64,000 nt of DNA, taken from IMG/VR virus record IMGVR_UViG_3300013902_000001, positions 84,000-147,999 of that record, one strand, 5' to 3'. The DNA is from a virus. Its lineage: Duplodnaviria > Heunggongvirae > Uroviricota > Caudoviricetes. Both the position numbers and the translations under genes were made by a program. The stretch's first letter is position 1, and every line of letters starts with the position of its first letter. The notes beneath the pieces were generated by a model. It made no database searches. It was not told the origin of the DNA and worked only from the letters and a program-made list of their open reading frames with translations. Of the stretch, positions 1,774 through 63,415 are shown piece by piece.

Positions 1774-1986
1774 CTAACTTCGTTTTAATTCCTTAGTCAA
1801 AAACTCGATAAATTCTTCTTCTGAATTACACTGCTTCGCTAAGGTAAATCCTCCGAAGTTAGGATCGTTTATGAATATTTCTAATTTATATAAATCTCCA
1901 GAAATAGTTACTTTTAATTGCCCTATAAATATACAATTATATAACTTTTCTATGAGGTCAGTAATACGTTTTTCGAGACCATCCAT
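1774..1986 (-). CDS. Hypothetical protein; start overlaps the terL stop
   Basis: ATG at 1984-1986. The ORF ends at a TAG and may read on. Confidence 0.3.
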   Translation of the reverse strand: MDGLEKRITDLIEKLYNCIFIGQLKVTISGDLYKLEIFINDPNFGGFTLAKQCNSEEEFIEFLTKELKRS

Positions 1987-4900
1987 AAAGCATAGTTGAA
2001 TTATTTGTCTATTTTACTTCTCCATACTAAACTCGTCCATATTCATCCCTATAATAGCCTACATTACCTAGAAGTTTGACCCGAGATTCTGTTTTAACTA
2101 CTTTGTTAATCATTTCTTCATCTGCTAATAGAGCCATTCCTAAAGCAGCTACATAGTCGAATTTTCTTTTATTGGCATAAGAATACCTGAGTAATTCATC
2201 TATAATAGCTGGAAACTAAATTGTTTCGCAATAATCGGTTATATATTGTTGAATTAAATCGAGTTGATGGTCAATAATAGTCGGTGTTGCAGGAACTCCA
2301 AATTGTTTAAAATTTGTTTTCCCAGAAGAATTGGCGGTCGCCTAAGGACGGTGCATCATATAGGACAAAGCTCCAAATCGCTCAAAATACTATTTAACAC
2401 TAACACGAGTTGCCTCCATTAACATAGGTGCATTATAGAATTTACACAGTTTTAAAGCATTATCATAAGCAGTCTTAACGTCTTTCGGCCGATCCTTGTA
2501 AGTCGCCACTATTTTAGGTTGTTGTAATCCATAGGCTCGTCGAAAAACAACGACAGCAAACTAAGACACATCATCCTGACCAGTTGAGGTTGTACTATCT
2601 CCGTCTATTGAATCGCAGTTATGCGTTGGAATATAATGACACATAAAGGTACTTGTCTCACAGTGATAATTATAAACAATTCCAGTATATTTAGAAACTT
2701 CTATTTCAGAAATCTTAATATAAATATAATTACAGGTTTCATCCTCAAAGAAGCACCTTGGAATTGCATGATCCGTATAAGTTTTATATTCCCATTTATC
2801 CAATTTTAAATCCGGTGCAGAATACATTCTTTTAAATTTATTGATCATATCACCGTGAACATCTAATGTCCATGCTTGATTCACAACACTGAGTCTCTGT
2901 TGACTAGTAATCTGATGAACTTTCTTAGTTGATCTCATCCAATGAACTGTAGAAATAATTCCCAATGAGAAGAGAATATCTTGCATATCCTCTAATAATT
3001 TTAAGGAACAACTTACAGCATTATAAGAATCCCTACTTTTACATAAACAACCGTCAGCGGAAAAATATCCTACAATTAAATTCATTTTTAAATCATTCGG
3101 AAGAAACTTTACCCATTCTGGCAAATTTTTATTTTTTGCTCCAATTCCAAAATTTTCTTTGAAAAAATTCCAAAATTGTTGACAATTAAACAGAACTTCT
3201 GCAGAATTTCCGAGGCCTTTCTGCCTACTTTTTACATGTCTATTTAAAACTTCCGATATAATTCTTTTTGCCTTTTCTATATAAAAAGTTTCGTTTAGAT
3301 TAAATGTAATTCCGACACATCCACAAGGTCGGTTTTTAGTGGGAGTTGCGCACCAACCATCTCCTAAAATTAATCCTACTAACCACCAAAAATCTTTATT
3401 TCCTAATGGATTGCCGACTCTTTGATCTATACGAATATTCGATTCGTCCCATTTTTCCCACGGAATAGGTTTCTCGTGCTTGTAAATATTAGGAACTTTT
3501 ACAAAATCTCCAACTTTTACGTCCTTCATAAGTTTGAATCTAAAATCATATACGTAATATCGTCTATGAAGTCCGTGTTTTTGGGCATAGGCACCTCCAT
3601 GATAATGCTATTTAGGAGTTGCACAATATATAGGATGTTCGCCTGTAAAAGTTGTGGTGCTAAAGATATTATTCAACTTAACTTTGTAGATATTTTCATC
3701 TTCCTTTTGATATTGTTGAAGGTTTATGATATTTACCGGTTTTCCGTTAATTGAATATAATTTATCATCTAATGTTACGTCTTCAACTTTTTTAAGTCCA
3801 TCCTAAGTAAGAACTTTCTCGCCTGGAGTTAAACATCCAACGCAGTATAAATTCTTAAAAGGAACCCCAGCTGAGTCGCATAATGGCAATTCCGCGATTT
3901 CTATCTTTCCGGAACTATCGAACTGAATCATTGGCCTTTGAGTTCGATCACAATTATCTCCGTCCATCGGCCAGATTAATTTAGCCTTTTTAGGTTTTTC
4001 TACGATTTTATGGATTTCTATCGCTGCTAATTGATCTGCTAATTTCTCTCGATCAAATCGATTCTCGCCTTCCATAATAAAGGCATCTTCCGGGGTAAAG
4101 CAATACTCCGACTTTTTAATTAGAAGCGATTGTGGATCGTCTATTTGAGCCCACTGATCAAGATAATACTTTTTAGCACGCTCTTCGTCAACGACTCCCC
4201 TTTCATCAAATCCCACCTCACCATCTTCTCCACCAAACCACATCGAGTAAGATGGAATAAAATAGCCAGTCATTTGTGGTTCGCCATTAGCCATAGAAGT
4301 ATTATAGAAAGGAAGCATCGTATAACCTCTAGGATTATAAAACATCTTTTTCAAACCTTCTACAGCAGGACCCATATCCTGAGACGTTCCGAAAACAAAT
4401 CGATTCCCAACCCTTCGACCAAGAATTCGCACAAGTGCTTCCCCACGCTCATAAGTGGAAATCAAACAAGGGTTGTTACCAGACTCTTCGAAATAGATAT
4501 TTTCAGTACGACCACCACGGAGTTTATCTGGAGTATCGGCAGTAATTCCTTCAACTATAGATTTCTTTCCAGCTTCTACACCGTCCTGATCTACAGTCGA
4601 AGCGACTTTCTTCATTAAAGTATTAGTTTTTTGTTTATGAAGGCCTAACGCACCTTCAGTGCAAGAATCCAGAAAATCAAATTCTTGCCAGACTTTTGAT
4701 AGTGTGTCTTTCACATATTTTTCTAGAAAAGCAGTAACTACATTATTACTCTAATCTATAAAAGTAAAAGCATGAGCACAATTGGAAGCGGCTATCTCAC
4801 TCGCTCCGACTCCACGGCTCTTGAAAGCCAATCCATCATATCCAGCCTTTTTACACATATCTAGATAGTGGAAATACTCATACTATTTATTTACAAATAT

Positions 4901-5476
4901 AGGAAAATCTTCAGCACGCTGAGCTACACTACCTTCAGCTACGATAGGACTTAAAAGCCTATAATAGTTAAGAAAAAAGTAATTTTGCCCAGTAATAGTA
5001 TATTTCCCAACTGTATATCCATAAGTGCATCTTCGGATTTCTTCTGTCCAGTGTTGCTACCATTTATAGGTATCAGGGTAATAATCTGTATATCGGCCAA
5101 ATTTCCTATAATGATCTGCAGCTTCTGTAAAAGCTTTTGGATCGAAATCCAGTCCTTTATCTTTCGTTATAGGGCGATAGCCTGTAAGTTCATAAGATAA
5201 GGAAGGATCAAAATATTTGATTTTTTCAGTTTTAGGAACATCCCATTCCTTTACTGATTGAATGAGCTCTGGTTCTGGTTCTGGAATGGGATTTTTTTCT
5301 GCTTCCAGATACTCAGTCATAGCTTTTAATTCCTCAGCATCTTTTTGTGCTTTGGTTTTAGTTTTTCTAACATAAGCTTTTTTAGGAAGCTTAGAAACCA
5401 TTTGTGCTCGTTCTTCCGCTGTGGGAGCATTAACCCAAGCACTCTTTTCAAAAGATTTACTTTCTTTCTTTTTCAT
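1958..5476 (-). CDS. terL: Terminase large subunit (ATPase plus nuclease) interrupted by an intein. Read through six in-frame TAG codons; ends at TGA 1958-1960
   Basis: ORFs 5057..5476, 3803..4714 and 2561..3529 are in one frame, separated only by TAG. Plus-strand cta triplets sit at 5057, 4883, 4751, 3803, 3608 and 2561. The C-terminal nuclease-like region reads ...IWPMDGDNCDRTQRP...; an ATPase-like stretch FKSRGVGAS lies N-terminal to it. Confidence 0.7.
2615..3835 (-). mobile_element. Intein (about 407 aa) with a LAGLIDADG homing-endonuclease domain, inserted in terL
   Basis: Intein block A follows the extein ...KNLYCVG: CLTPGEKVLT(TAG)DGLKKVEDV. Two LAGLIDADG motifs are present (LVGLILGDGW and IVGYFSADGC). 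The C-terminal end reads ...FMCHYIPTHN followed by the extein Cys (CDSIDGD...). Confidence 0.7.
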
Positions 5477-15634: not shown

Positions 15635-15934
15635 GTTGCTTCGCCTGGATTCGAACCAGGACTCCAAGTTTTCTTCACCACTCTATATTACTATAGCCAT
15701 TTCTGTTGTGGTCCGGACTTTGTCTTCACCTTACTTTTACAAGCTTAGGTGTCTCGTATAAAGTCTCTACACTCGGCTTAATAGCCTAGCTCGGCGTTGT
15801 CCCTAAGGAGTTTCACCGACTTAGCGAGATTTACATCTGAAAGTTTCCTACCAGAGCTCCTGTCTGTAACTTACTGAAAATCAAGTAGTTACAAGGAAGA
15901 GACTTGTTTGCTAACCCTTACAATTCACGAAGCA
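15635..15934 (-). tRNA. Candidate amber-suppressor tRNA (anticodon CUA) interrupted by a group I-like intron of about 225 nt. By plus-strand coordinates the exons are 15898-15934 and 15635-15672
   Basis: Minus-strand 3' end: T-arm CCTGG-TTCGAAT-CCAGG, then acceptor CGAAGCA plus A. The exactly complementary 5' acceptor strand TGCTTCG lies 300 nt upstream (plus-strand cgaagca at 15928-15934). Anticodon stem CAAGT/ACTTG. 5' loop part CUCU, 3' loop part AAA. Only the split CUCU|...G|AAA satisfies the group I rule (exon ends in U, intron ends in G), giving loop CU-CUA-AA. A GGAG candidate internal guide sits about 40 nt into the intron. U1:A72 is a Gln-like feature. Confidence 0.5.
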
Positions 15935-26994: not shown

Positions 26995-27367
26995 CAAAAG
27001 TTTTTTCATATATATTAAGGTATAAACTTATTGTAGGGGAAGTTTCTCGTTTTATAACCTATCCCTCTTTACGAATTGAAACCGACTAAAGTAAGGTTAT
27101 AAGTGGGTTTCAAAAACTTGACTTCCCGGGAGTCTTTACTGCTAAGTTATCCTAGATGGTTATAAGCAGATTTTTAACTGTTTCCGAGGCAAATAAAAGA
27201 TAGTATATAATATCTTTTATGGTTGGGGCGCGGCGAATAATAAGTTTTCCGGACCTTATTATTCGGATAGGAAACAGTTTTTGCCTATTAGATTAAAGGC
27301 AGATCGTTAGCTTTTCAAGCTAAAGAACTAGGATCGTTACCTAGATAGGCTACTAATTACAATTATT

Positions 27368-34111: not shown

Positions 34112-35311
34112 TTGTTTATGAAAACTCCAGAAAATATAAGAAAATTTCGAAAATATCTAAAGGATAATAACATTCAAGAACATGTGATAGATTTCTCGGA
34201 TCCAGAAGCAATTGTTATTGGAGCATATTGTAGTTTAGCAGGACCTTATAAATTTCATTTTTATGAGTTTAGTAAATTCGGAATGATTCATTTTACTCCT
34301 AGAGGGCAAGTTACTAGTAATTTTGGAATTTATAGACTATTAATAGAATCAGCTTTAATTGATAAAAAATTAATAAAATTAGGTATTGTTTTAACAGTTT
34401 ATAGGTATAGTATTCTTAAATGGATTTATGATCACCAAAAACTTGTTAAAAATCTCAATGATTTAGGATTAAACTTCGATGAATATCTATATGATAGAAT
34501 TATTTCTGAAGATTCCAATCCTAAAAAAGCCTTTAAATATGATCCTAGAATTTATTTAAGTGCTCAGCATAATCATAATAATTATGACACTACTTATAAA
34601 GCAATTGATTATATTCAAAGTGTTTTAAAAGAATCGTGGAAATTTTATCAAGATAAAAACTATGATTATAATACTAGAGTTTTATTATTAAGTAAATCTG
34701 AATTTAGTTATGGTCCAGCCTTAGGTAATTATACAAAAGATCCTAAGTTAGTCCGATATATTGCCGAACACAATAGTTCGAAGTTGCGCGATTATTGGAA
34801 TATGAGAGATAAACTTAAAGAATTTGTAAATCTAAAAGATTATCCGAAATTTCCACAAAATTTGTCTAAAAAACATGATGAATTAGTAGTTTTTTACAAT
34901 AAATATCAAGACAAGCTTCAGAAAGAAAAGTTAATTCCACTACAAAAAGAATATGAGAAAAAATTCTTAAAATCTGCTAAAAAATATGAGTATGAATTTG
35001 AGGATTATATAATTAAAACATGTTCTGATTTAATGGAATTGATTGTCGAAGGACGAGAATTAAATCATTGTGTAGCTAGTTATACAGATTCCGTTTCAAA
35101 AGGTAAAGAATATATCTTATTTTTAAGAAAGAAATCTGAGCCAGAAATTCCTTTTTATACTATTGATCTTATCCCTGATGGGCGAATTCGACAAATTCGT
35201 GGAAAATGTAATTGTTTGCTTACTCCAGAATTAAAACAAATTATTCAACCTTGGATTCAAAAGTTTAATTTAACTGGAAATCCAGACGAAATTCATTATC
35301 ATTTATGGTAG
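34112..35311 (+). CDS. PcfJ-like domain protein
   Basis: The C-terminal EGRELNHCVASYTDSVSKGKEYILFLRK...IPDGRIRQIRGKCNCLLTPE resembles the PcfJ-like family. Confidence 0.35.
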   Translation: MFMKTPENIRKFRKYLKDNNIQEHVIDFSDPEAIVIGAYCSLAGPYKFHFYEFSKFGMIHFTPRGQVTSNFGIYRLLIESALIDKKLIKLGIVLTVYRYSILKWIYDHQKLVKNLNDLGLNFDEYLYDRIISEDSNPKKAFKYDPRIYLSAQHNHNNYDTTYKAIDYIQSVLKESWKFYQDKNYDYNTRVLLLSKSEFSYGPALGNYTKDPKLVRYIAEHNSSKLRDYWNMRDKLKEFVNLKDYPKFPQNLSKKHDELVVFYNKYQDKLQKEKLIPLQKEYEKKFLKSAKKYEYEFEDYIIKTCSDLMELIVEGRELNHCVASYTDSVSKGKEYILFLRKKSEPEIPFYTIDLIPDGRIRQIRGKCNCLLTPELKQIIQPWIQKFNLTGNPDEIHYHLW

Positions 35312-35486: not shown

Positions 35487-35865
35487 TTTTATGGGCCTAG
35501 TTGGTTTTGATTCACATTAGTGAAATATAAATCTGTCAGGATGGTAACGCCCTACGTTGTTGTGTATATCCTTCAATTTTTTTACATTTCAACAATACGT
35601 TACGAAAACAATAAATGCAGATAGCTACAAAGCTTTCCGTGCTGCTGCTTAATTAGCAAGCACCTGGTAATGCTCAACCAAGGAACATAATGAGCATGGC
35701 AGTTTCCTCGTTCTTAAAATGAGGTGGTGGAGGTGGATATCAAACCGATATCCCCGAAGAGATAAAACACTCTTAAAAAGGTTATGACAGTAAAGAATTT
35801 ATATTAAACGGTGCTGAAGACGACAGTTCGATTCTGTCTAGGTCCACATTAAATTTTTAATCAAT

Positions 35866-37219: not shown

Positions 37220-37479
37220 TTTTAGTTATTTATTTACTTTTAGGAATATTGTTTAGTGGAATCTGTCTAAATACTTATTTAGATGGATTTCCACTAAAAA
37301 ATATTATTCCTATAATGTTAATTATTATAGTATTTTGGCCATTAGTATTAGGATTTTACCTATTTCTATGGTTTACTAAATAGGCAATAGTTTAAGTAAA
37401 ACGCATAATGTGGGTTTGAATCCCGCTTGCCTTCTATGGAAGAATTAATCAAAATGTTATCCTATTGAAATAGCAATTT

Positions 37480-38533: not shown

Positions 38534-38804
38534 ATTACTATCTTCTAAAGATCCAGAAACTATTCTTTTAGGCATAAAATTAATACCATTTGTTAAATTT
38601 TATCGATATATTAAATCTAGTAAACCTATTGCCTATAAAGCAATTTTATTACTATTAAGACATAGAAATCATTTAGAATTCTTATATCAGCCTTTTAATG
38701 AATATTATTCAGTCAGAATAAATATGAATAATTTTATAGGATTTCCTATATCAGTTCCGTACTTAAATCAATTATATCAACAATTCGAAAATGAAAATAT
38801 CTGA
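38520..38804 (+). CDS. Paralog-family member D
   Basis: MNISELLSSKDPETILLGIKLI ... LYQQFENENI; its start overlaps the stop of C. Confidence 0.45.
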   Translation: MNISELLSSKDPETILLGIKLIPFVKFYRYIKSSKPIAYKAILLLLRHRNHLEFLYQPFNEYYSVRINMNNFIGFPISVPYLNQLYQQFENENI

Positions 38805-39078
38805 TTTACTTAATACCAAGGATTCTGAATCTATTTCATTAGGAATAAGATTACTTTCTCAAACTGATTTTTTAGAATGGATAATATTAAATAAACATTA
38901 TCACGTAAGTTATGATTTAAGTCGAATATTTTATGGAAATGATTGGATTTATAATATGAAGCAAGCTATGATTGTATTTGAGGATTCGTATCAATCCATA
39001 AGATCTATATATCATTTCTTTAGTGTAAAATATTTATCAGAATTATGTCAAAAATATGAAGATTTCAGAAATGCTTAG
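38791..39078 (+). CDS. Paralog-family member E
   Basis: MKISDLLNTKDSESISLGIRLL ... QKYEDFRNA. Confidence 0.45.
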   Translation: MKISDLLNTKDSESISLGIRLLSQTDFLEWIILNKHYHVSYDLSRIFYGNDWIYNMKQAMIVFEDSYQSIRSIYHFFSVKYLSELCQKYEDFRNA

Positions 39079-39409
39079 TTCTTCAGATATAGAAACTGTG
39101 ATATTAGGATTATCGTTAATAGATAAATCCTTTTATGATTGGTTGCCTCAGAATTTATTTAAGATGGGTATAAAATTAAATTTGGAATATGTAAGTACAA
39201 TATTCTTTGACGAACAAGATACAATTGATTCGATTACTAAAATTTGTAATTCCAATTCAGTATATTTTTCGCATCCAATTCCTAAATTGTTATGGTGTAC
39301 TATGGGCTATTTATGTATTGATTCTGAAAATCAATTATATAAAATTAAGCAATCTGATTTAGTTACGTTATATGAACAATTTGAAAATTCTAGAAATTCT
39401 AAATTCTAG
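39056..39409 (+). CDS. Paralog-family member F
   Basis: MKISEMLSSSDIETVILGLSLI ... LYEQFENSRN. Confidence 0.45.
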   Translation: MKISEMLSSSDIETVILGLSLIDKSFYDWLPQNLFKMGIKLNLEYVSTIFFDEQDTIDSITKICNSNSVYFSHPIPKLLWCTMGYLCIDSENQLYKIKQSDLVTLYEQFENSRNSKF

Positions 39410-39662: not shown

Positions 39663-41361
39663 TTATTATTTAAAAGCTTGTAATGTTTTAGAATCTTGTC
39701 AAAATCTAGAACAGTGTGCTACCGCTAGAAATTATCTTTTACTTTTAAGAAAGAAATTTCCAGTTGAAGAGTCTGTGGTTAAGTTGTTGGATCTGCTTTC
39801 TATAAAACAAAATGTTGTAAATTCACCTAATTTAATAGAAGAATAATGGGTTGTTTTCATAAAATTTTTGCTCGGCAAGAGCGAAAGAAAAAACTAATTG
39901 CAGAAGTTAATCGTGGAGAAGATTGGGACTGGGGATATATTTATTCACTTCTTGCAGTTAAGTTGGAGAATATTCGAGATTATGCTCAAAATGATTCTGT
40001 TTGCGACCCAAAAGACTGGGGAATTGAATGGCTAACTAGAGCTATTAATCTATGTCGGCATTTATCTGGAAAGTCAAAGTATCCGAGTAAAATTAATATT
40101 AATAATGATTTTAGATTTCTTAGTAAATCAGAGCTTCAATTTTACCACAATCCAAAAAATAGATTAGATTATGTCTATTATAGGGAAATTTATGATTATA
40201 AAGCTAAAAATCTTTTATTCGAAATTCTTAAGAATAAAATAGAGTTATGGTGGGATTAGATAATAATTTTTAGATACTAATTAAAATGAAGAGACGTGAA
40301 ATTTACTTTAAACGAGGTTATCCAACAATTTGACCCTGATAATATAGAAAAAAATTTATATTTATCAGCCTGGATAAGAAATTATTCTAGAGTTTGGATA
40401 AATGATTGGATTCCAGTTTATGGATTCAGAGGGGCTAGTTCTCAGCTTCAAACATTCCTAACGGCAACTAGTAATGAAGAAAAATGTGTTCGAGAAATCG
40501 CTATAAAATCTTTACAAGAATGGTATGGAGATAATTAAGGAACATTTTAAATCGATTCATTCGTTATTAAATACTTTAAACAGTCGTCCTAATAATTCAG
40601 TAATGGCAATCGAAGATTCTTCTGAATCAGGGAGTTATGATTTTACTGGAAGTCATAGTTATGATGAAGCTGTTCAGTTATTTAAAGAGGGATATGTAGA
40701 AATTCTTCCTAAAATAATGTCTAAAATGAAGAAGATGGAGAAAGATCTATATTCTGAATTTCAATTTACAAAAAAGATACGTCCACAAAATTCGATAGAA
40801 GGAGTTGTTCCTAATGTTCCAAATGCTATATTAGGTCTTCCACAATCTATGATTGATATGAAAAGATTTCCACAAAAGCAGAAAACTTTAAATATTATCT
40901 ATGAAATGGGAGCTAATTGTGGAACTGATAAAGAGTTGTTTATAAATGCAGGAGTAGTTTTATTAACGGCAATTAAAATCTTAGAAACTAAGAGAATTTC
41001 TGTTAAATTAACACTCGGATTTATGGCTGTAAAAGCTGATGAACAAGGGGGTTTTCCAACTGTTGATTTAAAAGATTATGGACAAAGATTAGATTTGCAG
41101 AAGTTATGTTTTCCATTAGCTCATCCTTCTATGTTTAGAAGAATCGGGTTTAAATGGCTAGAAACTAATCCTGATATTACAGATAAAGACTTTCGATTTG
41201 GTTATGGTAGAAGTCCTGCTGATCAAACGGAAGAATGGAAAGATTTTGTCAATCAGTTAAATTTACTAAAAAATGCTCGTGTATTACGAGCTCAAGATAT
41301 TGAAGAAATGAGATTCGATGTTAGTAAATTAATTGACTATTTAAATATAAATAATGCCTAG
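39649..41361 (+). CDS. Four hypothetical genes (39649..39846, 39846..40259, 40296..40538, 40525..41361)
   Basis: ORF track. No motif recognised. Confidence 0.3.
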
Positions 41362-43407
41362 AATTAAATCGGGAGATTCCGTTTCTCAAATTCCAGAATT
41401 GACTAGTTCTTTGGATCAATTGAATATTGTATATAGTAAGATGCTATCTTCCTTAATAGGAATGTTTGATCCAAAAGATATATTTGATAAGCTTTCACCA
41501 GAAGTAGAAAAGATGTTTATGGAACATTTTGGAGGAATTCCCCAAGTTCATAAATTGCTTTTACCAGATGGAGAAGAACATCCTTTTACAGGAGTAACTC
41601 ACGAAATGTTTGATACAGTGCTTAATTTAGTCAATCTAGATATTCCAGTTTATCTTTGTGGACCTGCTGGGGTTGGTAAAAATTATCTGGTTAAACAAGT
41701 TGCGGAAGCTTTAGGAAAAGAGTTCTATTTTAGTAATGCTGTTACTCAAGAATATACATTAGTCGGTCAAATTAATTAATATTTTTCAAAATTGAAGGTT
41801 ACGAAGAAAAAAATTACAGACGACCTTCGTAAACAAATGAACTAGTTGTTTAATGAAGGTAAATCCATTACTGAAATTGCAACAATTTTAGATGTAGATA
41901 GACATACTGTTGCTAGACATTTAGTAGATAAAAGTAAGTATAATGAAAATTGTTTTTCAACTATTACTGCTGAATCTGCATATTGGCTAGGATTTATGTA
42001 CGCAGACGGATATGTCGGATCTACTCGAAATACTGTTGGAATTTCATTAATGAAATCAGATTTCAATCATTTACAAAAGTTTTCTAAATTTATATAGTAT
42101 AAAGGAAATTGTGTAAGAATTTTTCATGGGAAGTCATCTTTTGGAGATCATTATTATTGTAGAGTTAATCTTCGTAATAAGAAAATGCACGATGATTTAG
42201 TATCCCTAGGTTGTGTTTCTCTTAAAACTCATATATTACAATTTCCTAAATTTATGTATAAATCTGAATATTTAAAAGATTTTGTGCGAGGATTTTTTGA
42301 TGGAGATGGATGTCTAAGTTTAGACAAACGTGGAAACAGAGTCGAAGCTTCATTTATATGTGCAGTTGAGTAGTTTATAATTGATTTACAAGCTGCTATT
42401 AAAATTTTAGGTTTTGAATCTACAAAATCTAAAAGTAATAAATGTCATCGAATCCGCGTAAAAAATGCTTTTAAGTTTTTAGATTTCATATATAAAGATG
42501 CTGCTGTATATTTAGATAGAAAATTTGAAAAGTATTATTCTCTCAAGCAGAGGAGAGAAGGCCGTCTTATGGAGTAATCTATAAGATTATTACAGGACAA
42601 TATCGGTGAAGCCGTTTAGGTAATACCGAGATAATCTAACAAATTGCGAAAGGTTGTTAGACATCGTAACGCATAGAGAGTGAATAAATATAATCTCTCC
42701 ACGAGTGCCCTGCGCCCTTAGGGGTGAAAATATATGCTGAGCTAGACTAGAATTAACTAGTCGTATTCCATTAGGATATGAGAGAAATCTCTAGAAGTTT
42801 TGGATAAAAAACCAAAACGATAACAAAACTGTTTCGCGACGCGAATGGTATATTCCATGAAACTCAGTTTTATGATGCTTTTACTAAAGGAGGAATTTTC
42901 TTTTTGGATGAGATAGATGCTTCTATTCCTGAGGTTTTAATTATCTTAAATGCTGCTATTGCTAATAGATATTTTAACTTTCCATGTGGTAGAGTTTATG
43001 CTCATCCGGATTTTCGTGTAGTTGCTGCTGGTAATACATTAGGAACTGGTGCAGATTCTCAATATACAGGCCGCTATTGTTTGGATAGAGCAAGTCTAGA
43101 TCGATTTGCTATAGTTCATATAGACTATTCGCCTAAAATTGATTTGGAAAGTGCTGGAGGAGATTCTGAATTATCTAAATTTGCTCAGACTTTTCGGCAA
43201 GTTTGTGCAGATACTGGTATTCAGTGTTTATGCTCTTACAGAAGTATTTCTCGTATTCATTCTATGGAATCTGTAAATTTAGCCCCATTAAAGGAAATTA
43301 TGAAAATGGCTTTAGTAAAAGATTTGGATATTGATGATATTAATATTCTTCATTCTGAATTACAAAAGCGAATTCCTTCTAATAAATATGTAGATGCTTT
43401 AAAATGA
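41354..43407 (+). CDS. AAA_5 (MoxR/dynein-related) ATPase gene split by a group I intron. Exon 1 is 41354-about 41779; exon 2 is about 42846-43407
   Basis: Exon 1 carries Walker A: VYLCGPAGVGKNYLV. Exon 2 reads ...GIFHETQFYDAFTKGGIFFLDEIDASIPEVLIILNAAIANR...VVAAGNT (Walker B and sensor). The intervening 1.1 kb holds a LAGLIDADG ORF and a P-like element aaattgcgaaaggttgttag (42641-42660). Confidence 0.6.
41846..42577 (+). mobile_element. Intron-encoded LAGLIDADG homing endonuclease, intact only if two in-frame TAGs (42095, 42371) are read through
   Basis: Motif 1 LGFMYADGYVG; motif 2 GFFDGDGCLSL. 41846..42097, 42098..42373 and 42374..42577 are one continuous frame broken only by TAG. Confidence 0.6.
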
Positions 43408-46733: not shown

Positions 46734-47250
46734 ATGGAAGAAGAGAAAAAAGAGCCAACTCCTGAGGAATTGGAAGCACAAAAAGAGTTTTATCTACAGA
46801 AAGGAAAACAAGAATTTCGGAGATTTATATCAGATATTACTAACTATAAAAACTTCCACAACCTAACTTTACAGGCAATTTCTGACGAGATTGATAATAA
46901 AACTTCTAAGTTATCAGTTTCAAGAAGACAGTTCTTTAAGACTATAAAGATGGAAGTTTGGGAAAAATGGATTCCAGAAAAGAAACCGTTAATAGTTAAT
47001 AATTATGAATAGATTTTTAGTAACAGTTTTAGAACCTGATCCAGATAATTATAATAATATCTGGTGTTCAATTTGTGACGCGAATGATCCGAAAATTAAA
47101 CAAGATCTTCTTCCGGATTATACGCCAGAATGGCTATACGATAAAATTCAAGAAATTGATTCTACTATTGAAGAAGTTCAAGAATCTATTTTTAGCGTTC
47201 CTAGGATAACTTTACCAAAACTTTTAAAAGCTTCCGATGAAAATAATTAA
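46734..47250 (+). CDS. Two small hypothetical genes (46734..47012, 47005..47250)
   Basis: ORF track. Confidence 0.3.
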
Positions 47251-48276: not shown

Positions 48277-48867
48277 ATGAAACAGAAGAAAGAAATTATT
48301 AATGAAGCTCTTCTAAATTGTTTGGAAGATCTTTATAAATATGCAGTTCCGACTACTTCCTATGCAGCACTATTAGAAGCACACAAACAAGGCCAACCTT
48401 ATGATAAAGAATATTGGGCTCATCATTATTTGCCTGAAAAGTTATTTCGAGAGATAGTGGATCATTATAAGCACGCTTATAGTCTAGAACCCTATTTTAA
48501 GGAATACACTGATGTTCTAAAAGACTATCTTTTGGATGGAGGAACAACCGAAATCTATGTAAAAGACGACTCTCTAGTAGGAGGTCGAAGGGAATATACT
48601 AAAACTCCTAAACTCAAAGATGTAATTGGTGAGGAAGCAGCTGATAAAGTTGCAGAACTTATTAAGAAATGTCAAGAGTTTTATAGGGTTGATTGGTCTC
48701 GAACTGAAGGTTTTGAGTTTGAAATATTTAATTGTGGTCCATGCTGTAATGCAGAACCTGTAAAGAAGTATTGGGAATCTCAAGGTGTAGAAGTTGATTG
48801 TGATGACGATAAAATTATAAAAAACTTCTATAAAGAAGAATATGGCGATGATGAGGAGGATAACTGA
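48277..48867 (+). CDS. Hypothetical acidic protein
   Basis: ORF track, 196 aa. Confidence 0.3.
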   Translation: MKQKKEIINEALLNCLEDLYKYAVPTTSYAALLEAHKQGQPYDKEYWAHHYLPEKLFREIVDHYKHAYSLEPYFKEYTDVLKDYLLDGGTTEIYVKDDSLVGGRREYTKTPKLKDVIGEEAADKVAELIKKCQEFYRVDWSRTEGFEFEIFNCGPCCNAEPVKKYWESQGVEVDCDDDKIIKNFYKEEYGDDEEDN

Positions 48868-49802
48868 TGAAGACGACCCTGACTTCGAGTGAGAAAATTT
48901 CTCACGAGTATTGTTGCACTATCGTTAAAATAGGTGAAATTAAGCCTATAGAAGGTGCTGATAAGATAGTTCAAACTGAGGTTGAAGGAAGAACTATTAT
49001 TATAGGTAAAGACGAAGTGAAAGAAGGAGATATAATGTTTTATGTCTCTAATGAGTGTGAGTTAAATAAAGATTTTCTTTTTGTAAACAATCTTTTTGAT
49101 GATCCCACTCTTAATAAAGATCCTGAAAAGAAAGGATATATTAACAAACGAGGTCGTGTTCGGATGATCAAACTTCGTGGAGTATATTCTATGGGGTTTT
49201 TGTTTACAGTGGAAGCAATGAAAAATTATTTTCCTGCTTTTAATGTAGAAGAGGAAAATCTTTCTGAACGAATTGGTGAAGATTTCGATACCGTAGATGG
49301 AACATTATTTGTAAAAGCTTATGTTCCTCCTATGCCAGAACCTAATATTCGACTGACTCGAGAACAGCATCGAGCTAAGAAATTAGCTTTTGATCGAATG
49401 ATTCCAGGGCAATTTGCACTGCATTATGACACAAAACAGCTCCAGAGGGAAATATCAAGATTAAATCCTGATGATGTTGTTTGTGCCAGCACTAAGGTTC
49501 ACGGATGTGTGGATGCAGAAACATTAATTAATACCAATTTAGGTCAGTTTACTATTAAGCATATAGTATATAATAAACTTGATTGTTTAATAGAAGCTTA
49601 TGATACTTATACTCAGCAAAAAGTTTTTGTTCCAATCGATCAATATTATCATATTTCTAATGATGGTGATTGGTATGAATTAGAACTGGAAAACGGAATA
49701 AAATTAACTATAACTGGTAATAATCCGGTGTTTTTACCGGATCGTAATTGCTATCGTAAAGTTTGGGATCTTAAACCTGGAGATAGTGTATTATTTTCAT
49801 AA
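48867..49802 (+). CDS. RNA ligase N-terminal half (tRNA-binding OB-like domain plus nucleotidyltransferase motif I, KVHG), fused to an N-terminal split-intein fragment (49506-49799)
   Basis: EIKPIEGADKIVQTEVEGRTIIIG is like a Trbp111/CsaA tRNA-binding domain. ...ASTKVHG matches motif I (KxHG). Then CVDAETLINTNLGQFTIKHIV (intein block A), ending 98 aa later at TAA. Confidence 0.55.
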   Translation: MKTTLTSSEKISHEYCCTIVKIGEIKPIEGADKIVQTEVEGRTIIIGKDEVKEGDIMFYVSNECELNKDFLFVNNLFDDPTLNKDPEKKGYINKRGRVRMIKLRGVYSMGFLFTVEAMKNYFPAFNVEEENLSERIGEDFDTVDGTLFVKAYVPPMPEPNIRLTREQHRAKKLAFDRMIPGQFALHYDTKQLQREISRLNPDDVVCASTKVHGCVDAETLINTNLGQFTIKHIVYNKLDCLIEAYDTYTQQKVFVPIDQYYHISNDGDWYELELENGIKLTITGNNPVFLPDRNCYRKVWDLKPGDSVLFS

Positions 49803-49885
49803 AAACTGTTAACTTATTTTTTAATTTTTTTCTAATATTTTACTTTTGTACTAAAAAAATTCACGAACCATTAATTTTAAATATT

Positions 49886-50587
49886 ATGAAATATCGAAAT
49901 TGTCCTTTTTGTGGAGAGTAGATTGCTTTAGGTAATCCACATCACTTAAAAAATTGTCAGAAATATAAAGAATTTCTTGATACTAATTTAGAAGAACTAT
50001 TGAAATTATATAAAGATGGTTACTCTGTTGTTGAGTTAGCAGAAAAGTACCACATCTTGTATCATCAAATTCAAAAAATTATTAAAGATAGCGGAACTCC
50101 ATTACGTAATATTAAAGATGCTTGCACTACTAAAAGACGTAAAGAACGCTATAAAAAAACATGTCTTGAACATTTTGGTCAACCTCATAATTTCTGCAAA
50201 GAGAGCGAATCTCGAAAAGCTTGGGAAAAACGTCTTTTAGATGAGGAAGGTATTGTAAATGTTTTTCAACGGAAAGAAGTAAAAGAAAAAATAGTAGATT
50301 CACTTATTAAACATTATGGATTAAATTACAAACAGGTTTGTAATTCGAAAGAATATTATATTAATAAGTGGATTCAAGATGGTGCAACTTCAGAAGAAGC
50401 ACAGGCTCGTTATGAACGAATGTGTTTTTTAAAAGGGGAAGCTAATACTAAACAGCATTATATCAATAAATACGGTGAAATAGATGGATTAGAAAAATGG
50501 AAAGAACATGTAAAGAAATTACGTCCTAATTTTCAGATTTCTTCACAATCTACTTATATATCGTCACTTAATATTAACTTTTATTAG
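49886..50587 (+). mobile_element. Free-standing gene between the intein halves: Zn-ribbon plus HTH protein (homing-endonuclease-associated), with one in-frame TAG
   Basis: MKYRNCPFCGE(TAG)IALGNPHHLKNCQKY... runs on into ORF 50000..50587 in the same frame. The HTH-like segment is YSVVELAEKYHILYHQIQKII. Confidence 0.4.
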
Positions 50588-50590
50588 CTT

Positions 50591-50932
50591 TTGGTTGAAA
50601 ATAATATTGATTTTGAAGTAGAATATTGTTTAACTAGTTCAGATGGGCATGCTAGATACTTTGATTTTAAAGTTGATAATTATTTGATTGAATTAAACGG
50701 TGATTTTTGGCACGCTAATCCTAAAATTTATGCTGAAAACGATATTATTAATTTACCTGGTTCTGACGGGGTTTTAGCTAAATCTTTGTGGGAAAAAGAT
50801 GCTCAAAAACTACAATTAGCTCAACAAAATGGTTTTACGGTCATTACTTTATGGGAGTGTGATCTTAATGATAGTAAAAAATTAGAAAAAATTAAACGAA
50901 TTATGAAATTATATGCAAATAATAAAAATTAA
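50591..50932 (+). mobile_element. Vsr/DUF559-like (PD-(D/E)XK) endonuclease; a candidate free-standing homing endonuclease
   Basis: ELNGDFWHANPKIY...NGFTVITLWECDL. Confidence 0.5.
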
Positions 50933-51794
50933 AAAAATAACTCCAGTTTCAATTCGTGATCGATACGATTTAACTGTAAGCTCCACACATAATTTTTTTG
51001 CTAACGGTATACTGATTCATAATACTAGCGCCATTTTTGGTAACATTTTGACACTTCAACCGCGATGGGGTGGGATTTATTCTAAAATCTTCAACTATCT
51101 TCCGAAATTCCTTCAATTTACTAAGAAAGGTTATGATGTAATTTATTCTTCCAGAACAGTTATTAAGAATAAAACTATTAATCCAAAAGTTAATGGTGGT
51201 TATTATGATACTGATGTTTGGGGAGAGTATTATGAGCTTCTAAAAGATGTGATTCCTGCTGGTATTACTATTTATGGGGAAATATTCGGGTATCTATCTG
51301 ATTCAACTCGTATGATTCAAAAAGGTTATGACTATGGGTGTAATCCTGGAGAAAATAAACTAATGATTTATCGAGTTACCAAGACTGAAGAGGATGGGAG
51401 TAAGAAAGAGTATAATATTAACGAAGTAATGACTTTTACTTTGAAAATTAAAGATTCTTTACAAGAAATTGGAAAAGATCCTAATAAACTATTCTTACTA
51501 CCATTACTTTACCATGGAACTTTGAAAGATTTGTATCCAGAAATTGATCCTGCTAATCATTGGCATGAAAACGTATTAGAAGCATTGAAAAATGATACTG
51601 AGCATTTTGGTATGGAGAAGAAAGAACCATTATGTCGTAATAAAGTGCCTAGAGAAGGCATTTGTCTACGTATTGATGATGATCCTATAGCAGAATGTTT
51701 TAAATTGAAGGCCCTAAGCTATCTTCAGAAAGAGGGAGCTGAAATAGATTCCGGAACTTATGAAGATATTGAGACACAAGAACGATATGAGTAA
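50913..51794 (+). CDS. C-terminal split-intein fragment (50913-51023) fused to the RNA ligase C-terminal half
   Basis: MQIIKIKKITPVSIRDRYDLTVSSTHNFFANGILIHN|TSAIF (intein blocks F/G, then the +1 Thr). Downstream ligase-like motifs: YGEIFGY, EGICLRID, KLKA. Confidence 0.55.
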   Translation: MQIIKIKKITPVSIRDRYDLTVSSTHNFFANGILIHNTSAIFGNILTLQPRWGGIYSKIFNYLPKFLQFTKKGYDVIYSSRTVIKNKTINPKVNGGYYDTDVWGEYYELLKDVIPAGITIYGEIFGYLSDSTRMIQKGYDYGCNPGENKLMIYRVTKTEEDGSKKEYNINEVMTFTLKIKDSLQEIGKDPNKLFLLPLLYHGTLKDLYPEIDPANHWHENVLEALKNDTEHFGMEKKEPLCRNKVPREGICLRIDDDPIAECFKLKALSYLQKEGAEIDSGTYEDIETQERYE

Positions 51795-60920: not shown

Positions 60921-61990
60921 TAGAAATTTTTAAAATTATTAAAGGTAATACCTGTAATGCAGCCTATGATATTAATAGGATTATAAAAGGTAATACCTAT
61001 CAACAGTCCGATTACTCAGGAGTGTATCTTTATACAGATACACTACCTGAGTTAAAAGGCCTTTCTAAACAAAAACCAGTAATTACAAAACAAATTCAAT
61101 CAAAAGATAAAGTTTATTTTGCTAGTGGATGTGGCTATCCATCACTTCTATTTAGTAAATATAAATCTGACAGTAATATTAAGCTAGACTTAACTAGAAC
61201 TACTTCTCCTGATAGAGCTGATGTTATTGTTATAAGTCCAGAGTGGATGGATGATTATAATCCTTGGAATTGCCATTTGTCTACCCTCTATAATGATAAT
61301 AACGTTAGATGGCAATCTAACACTTTTGATGGTTTTAATGAATCTGCAGCTGCTATTAATAGGCAAAAGTTAACTACTTTCTTAGGTCGCGAGGCTTATT
61401 TTATGATGAAAATATCTAATATTCAGGCAGAAACTTTTGAATTAGTCCGAAAATATCCTAATAAAATAGTATATACTATGGATCTGATTGAATATGTCTT
61501 TCCATTTCTGCCTGTAATGACAGATAGTGAGTTGGATATTATTATTTCCATGCTAAAAACTTCTGATGAACAGGCTAGAGCTACGGGAATTCAAATGTTT
61601 CAATATTCTAATTTTTCTGATAAAATTTATACGATTGTTAGAAGACTAAAAACAGAAGTTCCTTATGTTTATTTTCCATCAGAATCAGCAGCTTCAGCAG
61701 CTTGGAAATATCTTTATTCTTGTCTAGGAATTCCAGTGGAAAAATTTACCAGTGGACAATCTTATGCTAGTAATATAACATTTTATGCTACTAAAGTTAT
61801 GGGAAATCCTTTAAATACTCAAAATCTAGATGATTTAAAAGCCGATATTTTATCTCAATTAGTTGAAAAATTGAAATCAGATACTCAATTTTCCACTTTT
61901 AGGGAAGATTTAGCATTAGTGGGGTATCGGTTAACAGTAGAGCCTATACCTGAAGATGACTCGGACGGAGAGACAGAATCTAGGGATTGA
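60917..61990 (+). CDS. Hypothetical protein
   Basis: ORF track, 357 aa. Confidence 0.3.
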   Translation: MIEIFKIIKGNTCNAAYDINRIIKGNTYQQSDYSGVYLYTDTLPELKGLSKQKPVITKQIQSKDKVYFASGCGYPSLLFSKYKSDSNIKLDLTRTTSPDRADVIVISPEWMDDYNPWNCHLSTLYNDNNVRWQSNTFDGFNESAAAINRQKLTTFLGREAYFMMKISNIQAETFELVRKYPNKIVYTMDLIEYVFPFLPVMTDSELDIIISMLKTSDEQARATGIQMFQYSNFSDKIYTIVRRLKTEVPYVYFPSESAASAAWKYLYSCLGIPVEKFTSGQSYASNITFYATKVMGNPLNTQNLDDLKADILSQLVEKLKSDTQFSTFREDLALVGYRLTVEPIPEDDSDGETESRD

Positions 61991-63415
61991 TAGGTGGAGA
62001 GATGCTGGAGGGCGAGGATCCGTTGTTTATCCGACCGGAACAGGGAAGTCGAGGACAGCTTTAATGGCAATTGAACGGGTGACTTCTAGAAATCCGAATT
62101 TGGTTATTAGAATTATAGTACCTACAAAAGTTTTAAAAGACCAATGGGAACGGTTAATTGAACAACAACAATGGGATTTAGATTTAAAAGTTTTAATTCT
62201 CAACTCTGCTGCCAAAAAGTCATTTAAATGTGACTTTTTGATACTAGATGAAATCCACCGCTCGAATTCTCTATCCTTTAGACAGATTTTTACTCAATGT
62301 TCTCCCATTTTGATACTTGGATTAACTGCTACTTATGAAAGGTTAGATGGATTTGAAAAAGAAGTGGTAGATCATTACTGTCCAGTCTGTGATACAATTA
62401 CTGTTAAAGAAGCTACTGAAAACGGATGGCTTTCTCCTTATAAAGAATATAAAGTTCTGCTTAATGTCGATTTAACAGAATACAATAAAGCTAATAAAGA
62501 ATTTATTCAGCATTTTTCCTTTTTTGATTTCGACTTTAATTTAGCATTATCTTGTGTAACAAACGTATTTGCACAACAAAAAGTTGCTAAAATGATGAAT
62601 TGTCAATTAAAAGAAGTAAAAGCTCATGCTTTTGCTTGGAATAGGGCTTTACATTTTAGAAAAGAATTTATTGCCAATCACCCAAAGAAAATTGAGATTG
62701 CGAAGAAAATTATAGAAGCTAGAAGTGATAAGAAAATTATTACTTTTAATACTAGTATAGAACAGTGTGAAAAATACGGATTTGGATATATTGTTCATTC
62801 TAAACAATCTAAAAAGAAAAATGCAGACATTCTAGAAGAATTTTCTCATTGCACTTCTGGGGTGATTCATAGTAGTAAACTTTTAATAGAAGGACTTGAT
62901 TGTCCTGGATTAAGTGTTGCTATTATTACAGGCTTCAATTCTTCTAAAACATCTAAAGTCCAAGAGGTTAATATATTTGCGTAGGCCTCTTAATCTGCCT
63001 AATTCTGGGGATGAACTCAAAGAGTCAATCCAGAGCTATAAAGAATGTGAAACGACTATCTCGAAAGAGAGTACACTATAAGCTAATGATAGTGGAAACG
63101 GCAGACGTATTAAAACGAAGATATAGTCTAATCTATATGGTGACATATAGCAGTTCATAAGAGAACGCATATAATCTTGCGAATTATATGGAATATAAAT
63201 GTGGGCGATGTATTCGAAAAGAAGAAGGAAAGACTGCAGAAATTTTTACGTTAGTTTTACGGGGAACAGTTGAGGATCAATGGTTTAAGAAATCTTCCGA
63301 AGACCTCAATTTCATAGAAATCAACGAATCCGAGTTAGACTTAGTATTACAAGGCAAATTAAACAAGAATGAAAAAACTCAAGATAAAGTCAATAATGAT
63401 CTTTTAAGAAAATGA
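61956..63415 (+). CDS. SF2 helicase (UvsW/RecG-like) interrupted by an ORF-less group I intron of about 200 nt (about 62985-63187)
   Basis: Exon 1 motifs: motif I YPTGTGKS, motif II FLILDEIHR, motif III LGLTATYER. Exon 2 (63188..63415) carries motif VI YKCGRCIRKEEG. The spacer holds a group I S-like element aagatatagtcta (63119-63131). Confidence 0.55.

Follow-up and report, generated by a model that had tools for sequence, protein, structure and literature searches.

The DNA analysed here, called the window, is a stretch of 64,000 nucleotides (nt) from IMG/VR record IMGVR_UViG_3300013902_000001 (positions 84,000 to 147,999), a virus of the Caudoviricetes. In the window, the gene for an AAA_5 ATPase is split by a group I intron at 41768-42831 (+), and this intron carries a LAGLIDADG homing endonuclease gene with three in-frame TAG codons. 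The phage reads TAG as glutamine in its late genes, and the endonuclease would be synthesised only late in infection, after a suppressor tRNA becomes active. A probability of about 0.8 is assigned to this reading, in which the region is a genuine group I intron with a late-only endonuclease. A preliminary description of the window, made from the sequence alone, had also proposed a group I intron in this ATPase, and a covariation-supported core and an AAA_5 domain that is contiguous across the joined exons agree with that proposal. The limits given there, 41780-42850, are replaced by those above.

The interrupted ATPase gene

Exon 1 (41354-41767, +) encodes the first part of an AAA_5 (midasin/CobS-like) ATPase, contains the Walker A motif GPAGVGKN (41660-41683) and ends in GUCGGU, with U at position -1. 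Exon 2 (42832-43407, +) begins FRDANGIFHETQFY and contains the Walker B motif IFFLDE (42886-42903). The two motifs lie in separate exons, as previously described, at a distance of about 1.2 kb, and their reading frames differ. The exon-1 frame is closed by a TAA at 41777-41779, 10-12 nt into the intron, which keeps ribosomes out of the intron. An exon-1 frame that ends shortly inside the intron is a general trait of phage group I introns (PMC2504315). Exon 2 has no plausible start codon near the junction and none before Walker B.

Conceptual splicing restores an intact ATPase of 329 amino acids with the junction ...TLVG/FRDANG... (a slash marks a junction or boundary throughout). Pfam AAA_5 matches the spliced protein at residues 99-211 (E = 3e-14), across the junction at residue 138, and model positions 2-126 are covered, junction included. 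The spliced protein also matches phrog_249 (E = 5e-58), and its matches in the PDB are midasin and CobS. An uninterrupted ATPase of 329 amino acids from a related gut phage, P0241, is 92% identical to it and aligns without a gap over all 329 residues. The alignment of the spliced exons to AAA_5, which the preliminary description had proposed as a check, thus yields one contiguous domain. The intron-less homologues of JD007 (Staphylococcus Kayvirus), Lactobacillus phage 3-521 and P0241 are collinear with the spliced protein through the junction, and the Staphylococcus Kayvirus and 3-521 proteins read ...LTGFIDANG... at this site.

Alleles with and without the intron both occur among related phages. 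An intron-less DNA allele, L131, reads TTAACAGGA/TACCGGGAT, and the exon ends of the window are TTAGTCGGT/TTTCGCGAC. The predicted junction of the joined-exon RNA is GUCGGU/UUUCGC. DNA identity between the window and the intron-less allele falls from about 0.9 to 0.75 right at the junction, which could reflect co-conversion, adaptation to the guide sequence or resistance of the target site. A different splice register, after CAAAU 41772 and UUUCG 42836 (giving TLVGQIDANG), fits the U and G rules. It was still rejected because the conserved 3' tail of the intron family ends in CUG at 42831 and because the guide pairs with GUCGGU and UUUC. An intein at the ATPase junction was also considered and rejected; Hint blocks are absent and stop codons are present.

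Structure of the intron

The intron is 1064 nt long and IA-like, with a P7.1 hairpin. It was delimited by family alignments, covariation and intron-less alleles, the last of which set the splice sites. Its elements occur in the order 5' splice site, P1 loop with the endonuclease open reading frame (ORF), guide, P2, P3-P9.1 core and omega-G. The ribozyme core occupies 42593-42818 (+). Within it, covariation supports P3 (42593-42599 with 42706-42712), P4 (42603-42607 with 42625-42629), P5 (42611-42621), P6 (42630-42632 with 42663-42665), P6a (42635-42661), P7 (42669-42675 with 42733-42738, with C42670 bulged), P7.1 (42676-42699), P8 (42713-42726), P9 (42742-42746 with 42790-42794) and P9.1 (42797-42818). 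J8/7 spans 42727-42732, and P9 holds a 43-nt insert that is specific to the window. The core is followed by a conserved 3' tail, GAUAACAAAACUG (42819-42831), which ends in the omega-G, G42831. The 3' end of the intron reads ...ACAAAACUG/UUUCGC, and nearly every member of alignments A2-A4 has the tail-final G. Self-excision after U41767 and G42831 is predicted from this structure.

Core pairs were counted on a MAFFT alignment of 33 family members that was made with no structural information, the structure being drawn by eye. From P3 to P9.1 there are 54 pairs in nine helices, and 98.3% of the 1741 cells are paired. Compensatory changes, on both sides of the pair, occur in 44 of the 54. The covariation score is 0.71, compared with 0.20 for shuffled alignments (0 of 500 shuffles reach the observed value) and 0.06-0.14 when the partners are slid, in which case only 31-42% of cells pair. 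P3 and P7 are interlocked in the pseudoknot typical of group I introns. On its 5' side, P7 consists of A, the bulged C and GCAUA. The bulge is followed by a G-C pair that never varies (33/33), and the outer pair covaries among AU, GC and CG.

The core elements named in the preliminary description fall elsewhere in this structure. Its P-like element (42641-42660) belongs to P6a, where it makes up the loop and the 3' strand, and is not P4. The segment that it took for R (42736-42750) begins with the last part of the 3' strand of P7 and continues through a linker and the 5' strand of P9, and its S (42755-42766) lies inside the window-specific P9 insertion. Pairing of these two segments as P7 was rejected. 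They are 4 nt apart and form a local hairpin, the P9 insertion is absent from all relatives, and the real P7 is the one given above.

Upstream of the core, the hairpin UUAUGGA-GUAA-UCUAUAA forms P2 (42567-42584, +). In alignment A5 it is 95% paired, with compensatory changes at all seven pairs, and it displaces an earlier candidate for P2, UAAUC-UAUAA-GAUUA. The internal guide, GAAG/GCCGUC (42557-42566, +), lies within the last codons of the endonuclease gene. In P1, GCCGUC (42561-42566) pairs with the exon-1 end GUCGGU at five of six positions, with U41767.G42561 at the splice site and one U.U mismatch. In P10, GAAG (42557-42560) pairs with the exon-2 start UUUC (42832-42835). The ORF-bearing members of the family have, upstream of P3, UGCCGUC, a hairpin of 7 base pairs with a GNRA-type loop and then GAUUAUNA. 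GCCGUC is kept although the reading frames of the upstream ORFs differ, which identifies it as an RNA signal. The guide was assigned on the strength of its position and this family conservation, and its location means that the endonuclease ORF fills the P1 loop. The fold of the 5' leader (41750-41870) is no different from that of shuffled sequence (z = -0.7).

The intron family

A blastn search with 42560-42860 matches 75 phage records, in unrelated genes. The matches include the TerL intron of JCL1032, the ATPase intron of the crAss-like phage cr6_1, the TerL intron of cr131_1, a Bacillus helicase intron and a DNA polymerase intron of a Leptolyngbya phage. A 20-position pattern from the most conserved loop finds at least 120 loci in IMG/VR (L011-L130). 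A covariance model built from the family alignment (R1) has one match in the window, at 42588-42837 with 202 bits; the window sequence was part of its training set. A splice rule that places the 5' site after GGU and the 3' site after the conserved ...ACAAnnUG restores GRKNGKTT in the JCL1032 TerL and GTGKT in the cr6_1 ATPase.

The introns at L011-L130 sit in many phage genes, often directly after the GGU codon of a P-loop (G/K). The position of the ORF varies within the family. LAGLIDADG genes lie in the P1 loop, and other ORFs lie in P5 or P8, including GIY-YIG-like ORFs in P8 in L013, L020 and L025. In L069 and in cr6_1 (L007), the Walker A codons (GGU/AAG) of related P-loop ATPases are interrupted by an intron of this family, about 30 codons upstream of the insertion site in the window. 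These introns have therefore entered a single gene family at two sites.

Genetic code of the phage

The window is AT-rich (33% G+C). Treating TAG as a sense codon lifts the share of the first 20 kb that is covered by long ORFs from 0.31 to 0.95; this region holds minus-strand genes that include TerL, a chaperonin-like gene and lysis genes. The same change hardly alters the plus strand from 23 to 64 kb, which encodes a DNA polymerase, an RNA ligase, a helicase and ATPases. In-frame TAGs number 70 in the 5265 codons of 17 late genes and zero in the 8949 codons of 35 early genes, which bears out the earlier view that a standard-code module stands beside a recoded one. Internal TAGs in the early module are confined to two endonuclease genes (Fisher p = 9e-7 against the 35 early genes, in one genome). 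One TAG codon of TerL aligns with Q in 105 of 106 homologues, and TAG is therefore assigned to glutamine. This decision was made on the TerL alignment, and the GroEL-like and lysozyme genes were looked at by eye only. TAG also encodes glutamine in other recoded phages (Borges et al., bioRxiv 10.1101/2021.08.26.457843).

TAG is the terminal stop codon of seven early genes (34118-35311, 38791-39078, 39056-39409, 39846-40259, 40525-41361, 46734-47012 and 61956-62984, all +). Each has a backup TAA or TGA 2-17 codons further on, and an active suppressor would give the seven proteins short C-terminal extensions.

The phage is uncultivated. Contigs nearly identical to the window, of up to about 172 kb, come from metagenomes, and the record names include a Hadza gut sample. 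IMG/VR contains one contig that is 99.8% identical. No close relative is present among GenBank phages, and the DNA polymerase of the window has about 35% identity with the enzymes of unrelated phages. The phage is not demonstrably a member of the crAss-like group.

The endonuclease gene and its TAG codons

The endonuclease ORF (41837-42577, +) has 246 codons and is supported by Pfam, PHROG and alignment. The protein has an N-terminal helix-turn-helix (HTH) and two LAGLIDADG motifs (YWLGFMYADGYV and FVRGFFDGDGCL), which read YWLGFMYADG and FVRGFFDGDG. With TAG read as Q, it matches Pfam LAGLIDADG_3 with 40 bits (cut-off 22.5), phrog_4645 with E = 1e-47, and HTH_38, so the LAGLIDADG gene reported earlier between the Walker motifs is confirmed. 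The in-frame TAGs are at 41843-41845, 42095-42097 and 42371-42373 (codons 3, 87 and 179). The second and third had been recognised in the preliminary description as codons that must be read as sense; the first had not been counted. There is no internal TAA or TGA. The stop codon TAA (42575-42577) lies in the GUAA loop of P2, and the last seven codons form the guide sequence and half of P2.

The protein aligns end to end with 29 intact homologues at 31-42% identity. All 20 invariant and all 15 near-invariant positions of the family are kept, including those past the last TAG. D57, G58, D155 and G156 do not vary among the 30 aligned sequences, and YLDRK near the C-terminus is kept. In this ORF, 21% of the one-step paths to a nonsense codon give TAG. 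Three TAGs among three stops would then arise under random decay with P of about 0.009; counting the other endonuclease gene of the early module (described below) as well lowers this to 5e-4. The density of TAG, three in 246 codons (12 per 1000), matches the 13 per 1000 of the late genes. TAG accounts for 3/7 of the glutamine-like codons in the endonuclease and for 0.30 in the late genes. At L122, another TAG-recoded locus, a homologous intron endonuclease has TAG where its relatives have Q (DTEEQFYWLG).

The three TAGs are invariant in nine contigs from independent samples, which differ in the ORF by only two substitutions and two indels; the nearest homologues beyond these contigs have at most 40% identity. 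The window copy is free of frameshifts, as are six other contigs. A run of A at 41800-41806, compared in the window and in L141-L148, has seven A in three contigs and eight in six. With seven, the frame is open upstream to a TTG at 41792 and back to the exon-1 stop, and the residues gained by this extension would correspond to helix 1 of the HTH. The variation in this run could be sequencing noise or could mark a slippery site.

The candidate homing target is the intron-less site of L131 given above (TTAACAGGATACCGGGAT). In L148, the intron has three changes in 1064 nt and exon 1 has eight in 414 nt; such low divergence of the intron is as expected after recent spread. We infer that the endonuclease is active and drives homing of the intron.

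The suppressor tRNA is itself interrupted by an intron

A gene for an amber suppressor tRNA(CUA) is present at 15637-15933 (-). Default ARAGORN and Rfam gathering-threshold searches of the window find tRNA-Glu alone and no suppressor tRNA. The gene was traced by synteny, since relatives carry a tRNA(CUA) between two genes that are also in the window, and ARAGORN reports it when introns are allowed. It is interrupted by a group I intron of 225 nt (15673-15897, -) between anticodon positions U35 and A36. RF00028 matches the insertion over the full model with 42.5 bits and E = 1e-9 (gathering score 50). The predicted splice junction is CAAGTCTCT/AAAACTTGG, and the spliced tRNA folds in ARAGORN as a normal 74-nt cloverleaf. 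TAG decoding, and hence decoding of the endonuclease gene, thus appears to require a second self-splicing event.

In L133 and L134, a different, uninterrupted tRNA(CUA) is present at the same locus. The intron-bearing cassette is nearly identical in four other contigs (L137-L140), where its flanks are different. Exact-pattern scans of IMG/VR for the tRNA intron or the tRNA found nothing relevant. The searchable literature yielded no account of a recoded phage whose suppressor tRNA contains an intron, which is weak evidence of novelty.

Three further RNA features were observed. An ordinary tRNA-Glu(UUC) gene (27282-27353, +) lies at the boundary of the two modules. A tmRNA-like gene at 35493-35849 (+) matches Rfam RF00023 with 49.8 bits (gathering 47). 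Its tRNA-like domain is good, and a reading frame that may encode the tag ends ...FRAAA-UAA; ARAGORN does not call the gene. A phage tmRNA in a stop-recoded phage may bear on ribosome rescue. A tRNA-like element of 54 nt at 37381-37434 (+) scores 31.7 bits with the Rfam tRNA model (gathering 29) and has an acceptor stem, a D arm and a T arm, with 2 nt in place of the anticodon arm.

Alternative explanations

Several observations weigh against the reading of the region as an intron with a late-only endonuclease. The Rfam model RF00028, searched with Infernal, does not match the intron at the gathering threshold or at E <= 10. P1 is short, with six positions and one mismatch, and by complementarity alone the guide site is indistinguishable from chance. 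The start codon of the endonuclease is uncertain, as the frame upstream of the ATG varies with the A-run, and no Shine-Dalgarno sequence is visible for it. Two low-coverage contigs, L146 and L148, have single-base indels in the ORF, and L148 has two nonsynonymous and no synonymous changes there; these changes could reflect relaxed constraint or assembly error. Most standard-code members of the family share the layout in which the ORF runs over the guide and have no TAG, which shows that the intron can work without such codons.

The search with RF00028, also proposed in the preliminary description, is uninformative. The model misses all six family loci fetched from the blastn matches, JCL1032 included, and does detect the suppressor-tRNA intron in the same window, so its silence reflects a sensitivity gap for this subclass. 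That silence is one of two points in favour of an arrangement without RNA splicing, in which the halves of the ATPase are translated separately or joined as proteins and a free-standing endonuclease gene lies between them; the other is that the same window holds a fractured RNA ligase gene. Such an arrangement is highly improbable here. No Hint or intein blocks flank the ATPase junction, exon 1 runs into its TAA 10 nt past the junction, and exon 2 lacks a start before Walker B. Directly before exon 2, 270 nt fold into a ribozyme that covariation supports and that is homologous to an intron whose splicing has been reported as proven, and the guide sequence fits both exon ends.

Whether the TAGs are read through or are marks of decay was left as an alternative in the preliminary description. 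If the intron were functional and its endonuclease a decaying pseudogene, the TAGs would be ordinary nonsense mutations, the protein would not be produced, and the intron would be immobile. Intron endonuclease genes do commonly degenerate, as in the cyclic model cited in PMC2504315, and the changes in L146 and L148 are of the kind expected, as is an N-terminus that is shorter than in homologues when started at ATG 41837. Decay nevertheless accounts poorly for a gene in which every stop is TAG, although about a fifth of nonsense paths lead there, in which the window and six other contigs have no frameshift, and in which every invariant and near-invariant position survives. TAG is demonstrably a sense codon in this genome, and the intron of L148 is less diverged than exon 1. 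The evidence (stops that are all TAG, an intact frame, TAG density and nine concordant contigs) favours translation of the endonuclease under TAG = Gln, and decay is improbable.

A stronger competitor is a functional endonuclease whose TAGs have no role in timing and arose by CAG-to-TAG drift under AT pressure or came with an element that circulates among TAG-recoded phages, TAG being under no counter-selection in a gene that is dispensable early. We regard this as a serious contender that still falls short of an even chance. It agrees with the near-late-gene TAG share among the glutamine-like codons of the endonuclease, with the single TAG at a Q position in the related endonuclease of another recoded locus, and with the standard-code family members that work without TAGs. 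It differs from late-only synthesis through selected TAGs in the matter of selection only; the outcome is the same, with no endonuclease before suppression. Selection is at least suggested by the position of one TAG at codon 3 and by the like bias of an unrelated endonuclease gene in this genome, and a significant enrichment was found in an analogous family (Borges et al., bioRxiv 10.1101/2021.08.26.457843).

Proposed mechanism

Under the favoured reading, the guide at 42557-42566 would pair with both exon ends to form P1 and P10. The P3-P9 core would then fold, and the intron would leave after U41767 and G42831, so that ...TLVG is joined to FRDANG.... The endonuclease ORF runs through the guide and P2. 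Early in infection, ribosomes would be released at the TAG of endonuclease codon 3, which would shield the guide sequence and P2; the ATPase message would fold and splice, and no endonuclease would be made. Once the suppressor tRNA (15637-15933, -) is available, the three TAGs, which are stops for host translation, would be read as glutamine. Late in infection, the endonuclease would be made and could cut the intron-less alleles of co-infecting relatives, into which the intron could be copied.

A more elaborate form of this scheme is possible but on balance doubtful. In it, a ribosome translating the ORF through the guide and P2 would prevent splicing, the TAGs act as a translational gate that resolves this conflict, the suppressor needs its own intron removed, and the homing of two unrelated endonucleases is slaved to a code switch that depends on a ribozyme.

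Comparison with known systems

The closest characterised relative is the TerL intron of the Lactobacillus delbrueckii phage JCL1032, for which splicing is reported as proven (Riipinen & Alatossava 2004, cited in PMC6669764). Homologous IA1/IA2 introns occur in Staphylococcus phage ROSA and in B. cereus prophages (PMC2504315). The JCL1032 intron and that of the window belong to the same RNA family, and their cores are about 75% identical (blastn). They share helices, loops (UGAAUAAAUAUAAU and GAUAAAAAGC), the 3' tail, the omega-G, the GCCGU core of the guide and insertion after GGU. The JCL1032 intron is 226 nt long, has no ORF and no P2, and interrupts the Walker A codons of a late gene in a standard-code phage. 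Unlike it, the intron of the window has an ORF in the P1 loop, a P2 and the 43-nt P9 insert, and it splits an early ATPase gene at a point between the two Walker motifs. A maturase role for the endonuclease is unlikely because ORF-less members of the family exist. The closest solved structure by sequence is the endonuclease/maturase I-AniI (PDB 1p8k), although the match is very weak (E = 0.002 over 92 residues). I-AniI resembles the protein of the window in being a monomeric LAGLIDADG endonuclease with two motifs that is encoded in a group I intron; the N-terminal HTH is an addition in the window.

Gott et al. reportedly described in 1988 that the endonuclease of the T4 td group I intron, I-TevI, is made only late, from an intron in an early/middle gene. 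In T4 the delay is caused by a late promoter and sequestration of the ribosome-binding site and not by the genetic code. The T4 endonuclease is of the GIY-YIG type with its ORF in P6a, whereas the LAGLIDADG ORF of the window is in the P1 loop.

The nearest parallel in the use of the code is in the TGA-recoded 'Agate' phages, in which an intron endonuclease within a standard-code early gene is enriched in the recoded stop; it was proposed that the intron splices and that the in-frame stops block the endonuclease until late (Borges et al., bioRxiv 10.1101/2021.08.26.457843). Agate phages belong to another clade and read TGA as Trp, whereas the phage of the window reads TAG as Gln, and the two cases are likened by their descriptions and not by their RNA or endonuclease sequences. 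In the window, the ORF is seen to overlap the guide and P2, and the suppressor tRNA gene bears an intron. The Delta and Zeta crAss-like phages combine many introns and inteins with stop recoding, with recoded stops in intron ORFs and TAGs in TerL inteins (Yutin et al. 2021, PMC7886860). The intron of cr6_1, of the same RNA family as that of the window, also splits an ATPase. The ATPase is a different one, however, with the intron in Walker A, and the endonuclease gene of cr6_1 is free of TAG.

Other selfish elements in the window

The RNA ligase gene (phrog_968) is a fractured gene at 48867-51794 (+). Its N-terminal half (48867-49802, +) ends in a split-intein N fragment that starts after TKVHG/C, and its C-terminal half (50913-51794, +) opens with a 37-residue intein C fragment, ...HNFFANGILIHN/T. 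Between the halves lies a free-standing endonuclease gene (49886-50932, +) with in-frame TAGs at 49919 and 50585. TAG is its sole type of internal stop, and it is the only other ORF of the early module with internal TAGs. The layout appears to resemble that described by Dassa et al. 2009 (PMC2677866).

The large terminase gene (1958-5476, -; 1172 codons) contains an in-frame LAGLIDADG intein, CLTPGEKVLT...LVGLILGDGW...THN/C. The ORF has 11 TAG codons, some of them within the intein. P0121, a 99% identical relative of 766 amino acids, has no intein. Of the features near the ATPase intron, two stand out as the most unusual: a suppressor tRNA gene with an intron of its own, and a further TAG-coded endonuclease gene lodged in an RNA ligase gene that is fractured and has a split intein.

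Implications

Genes that are split by members of this intron family, which RF00028 misses, are annotated as fragments, and endonuclease genes with TAG codons are called pseudogenes. The covariance model and splice rule given here mend such annotations. The logic of a late-only endonuclease is already published for TGA-recoded phages; the window is a TAG-recoded case, in a lineage without close GenBank relatives. What is added is structural detail, with an ORF in the P1 loop that overlaps the guide. The window joins three linked elements, an intron endonuclease, a fractured-gene endonuclease and a suppressor tRNA that depends on splicing. It would provide a clean TAG-recoded example in which a change of code during infection sets the timing of selfish endonucleases.

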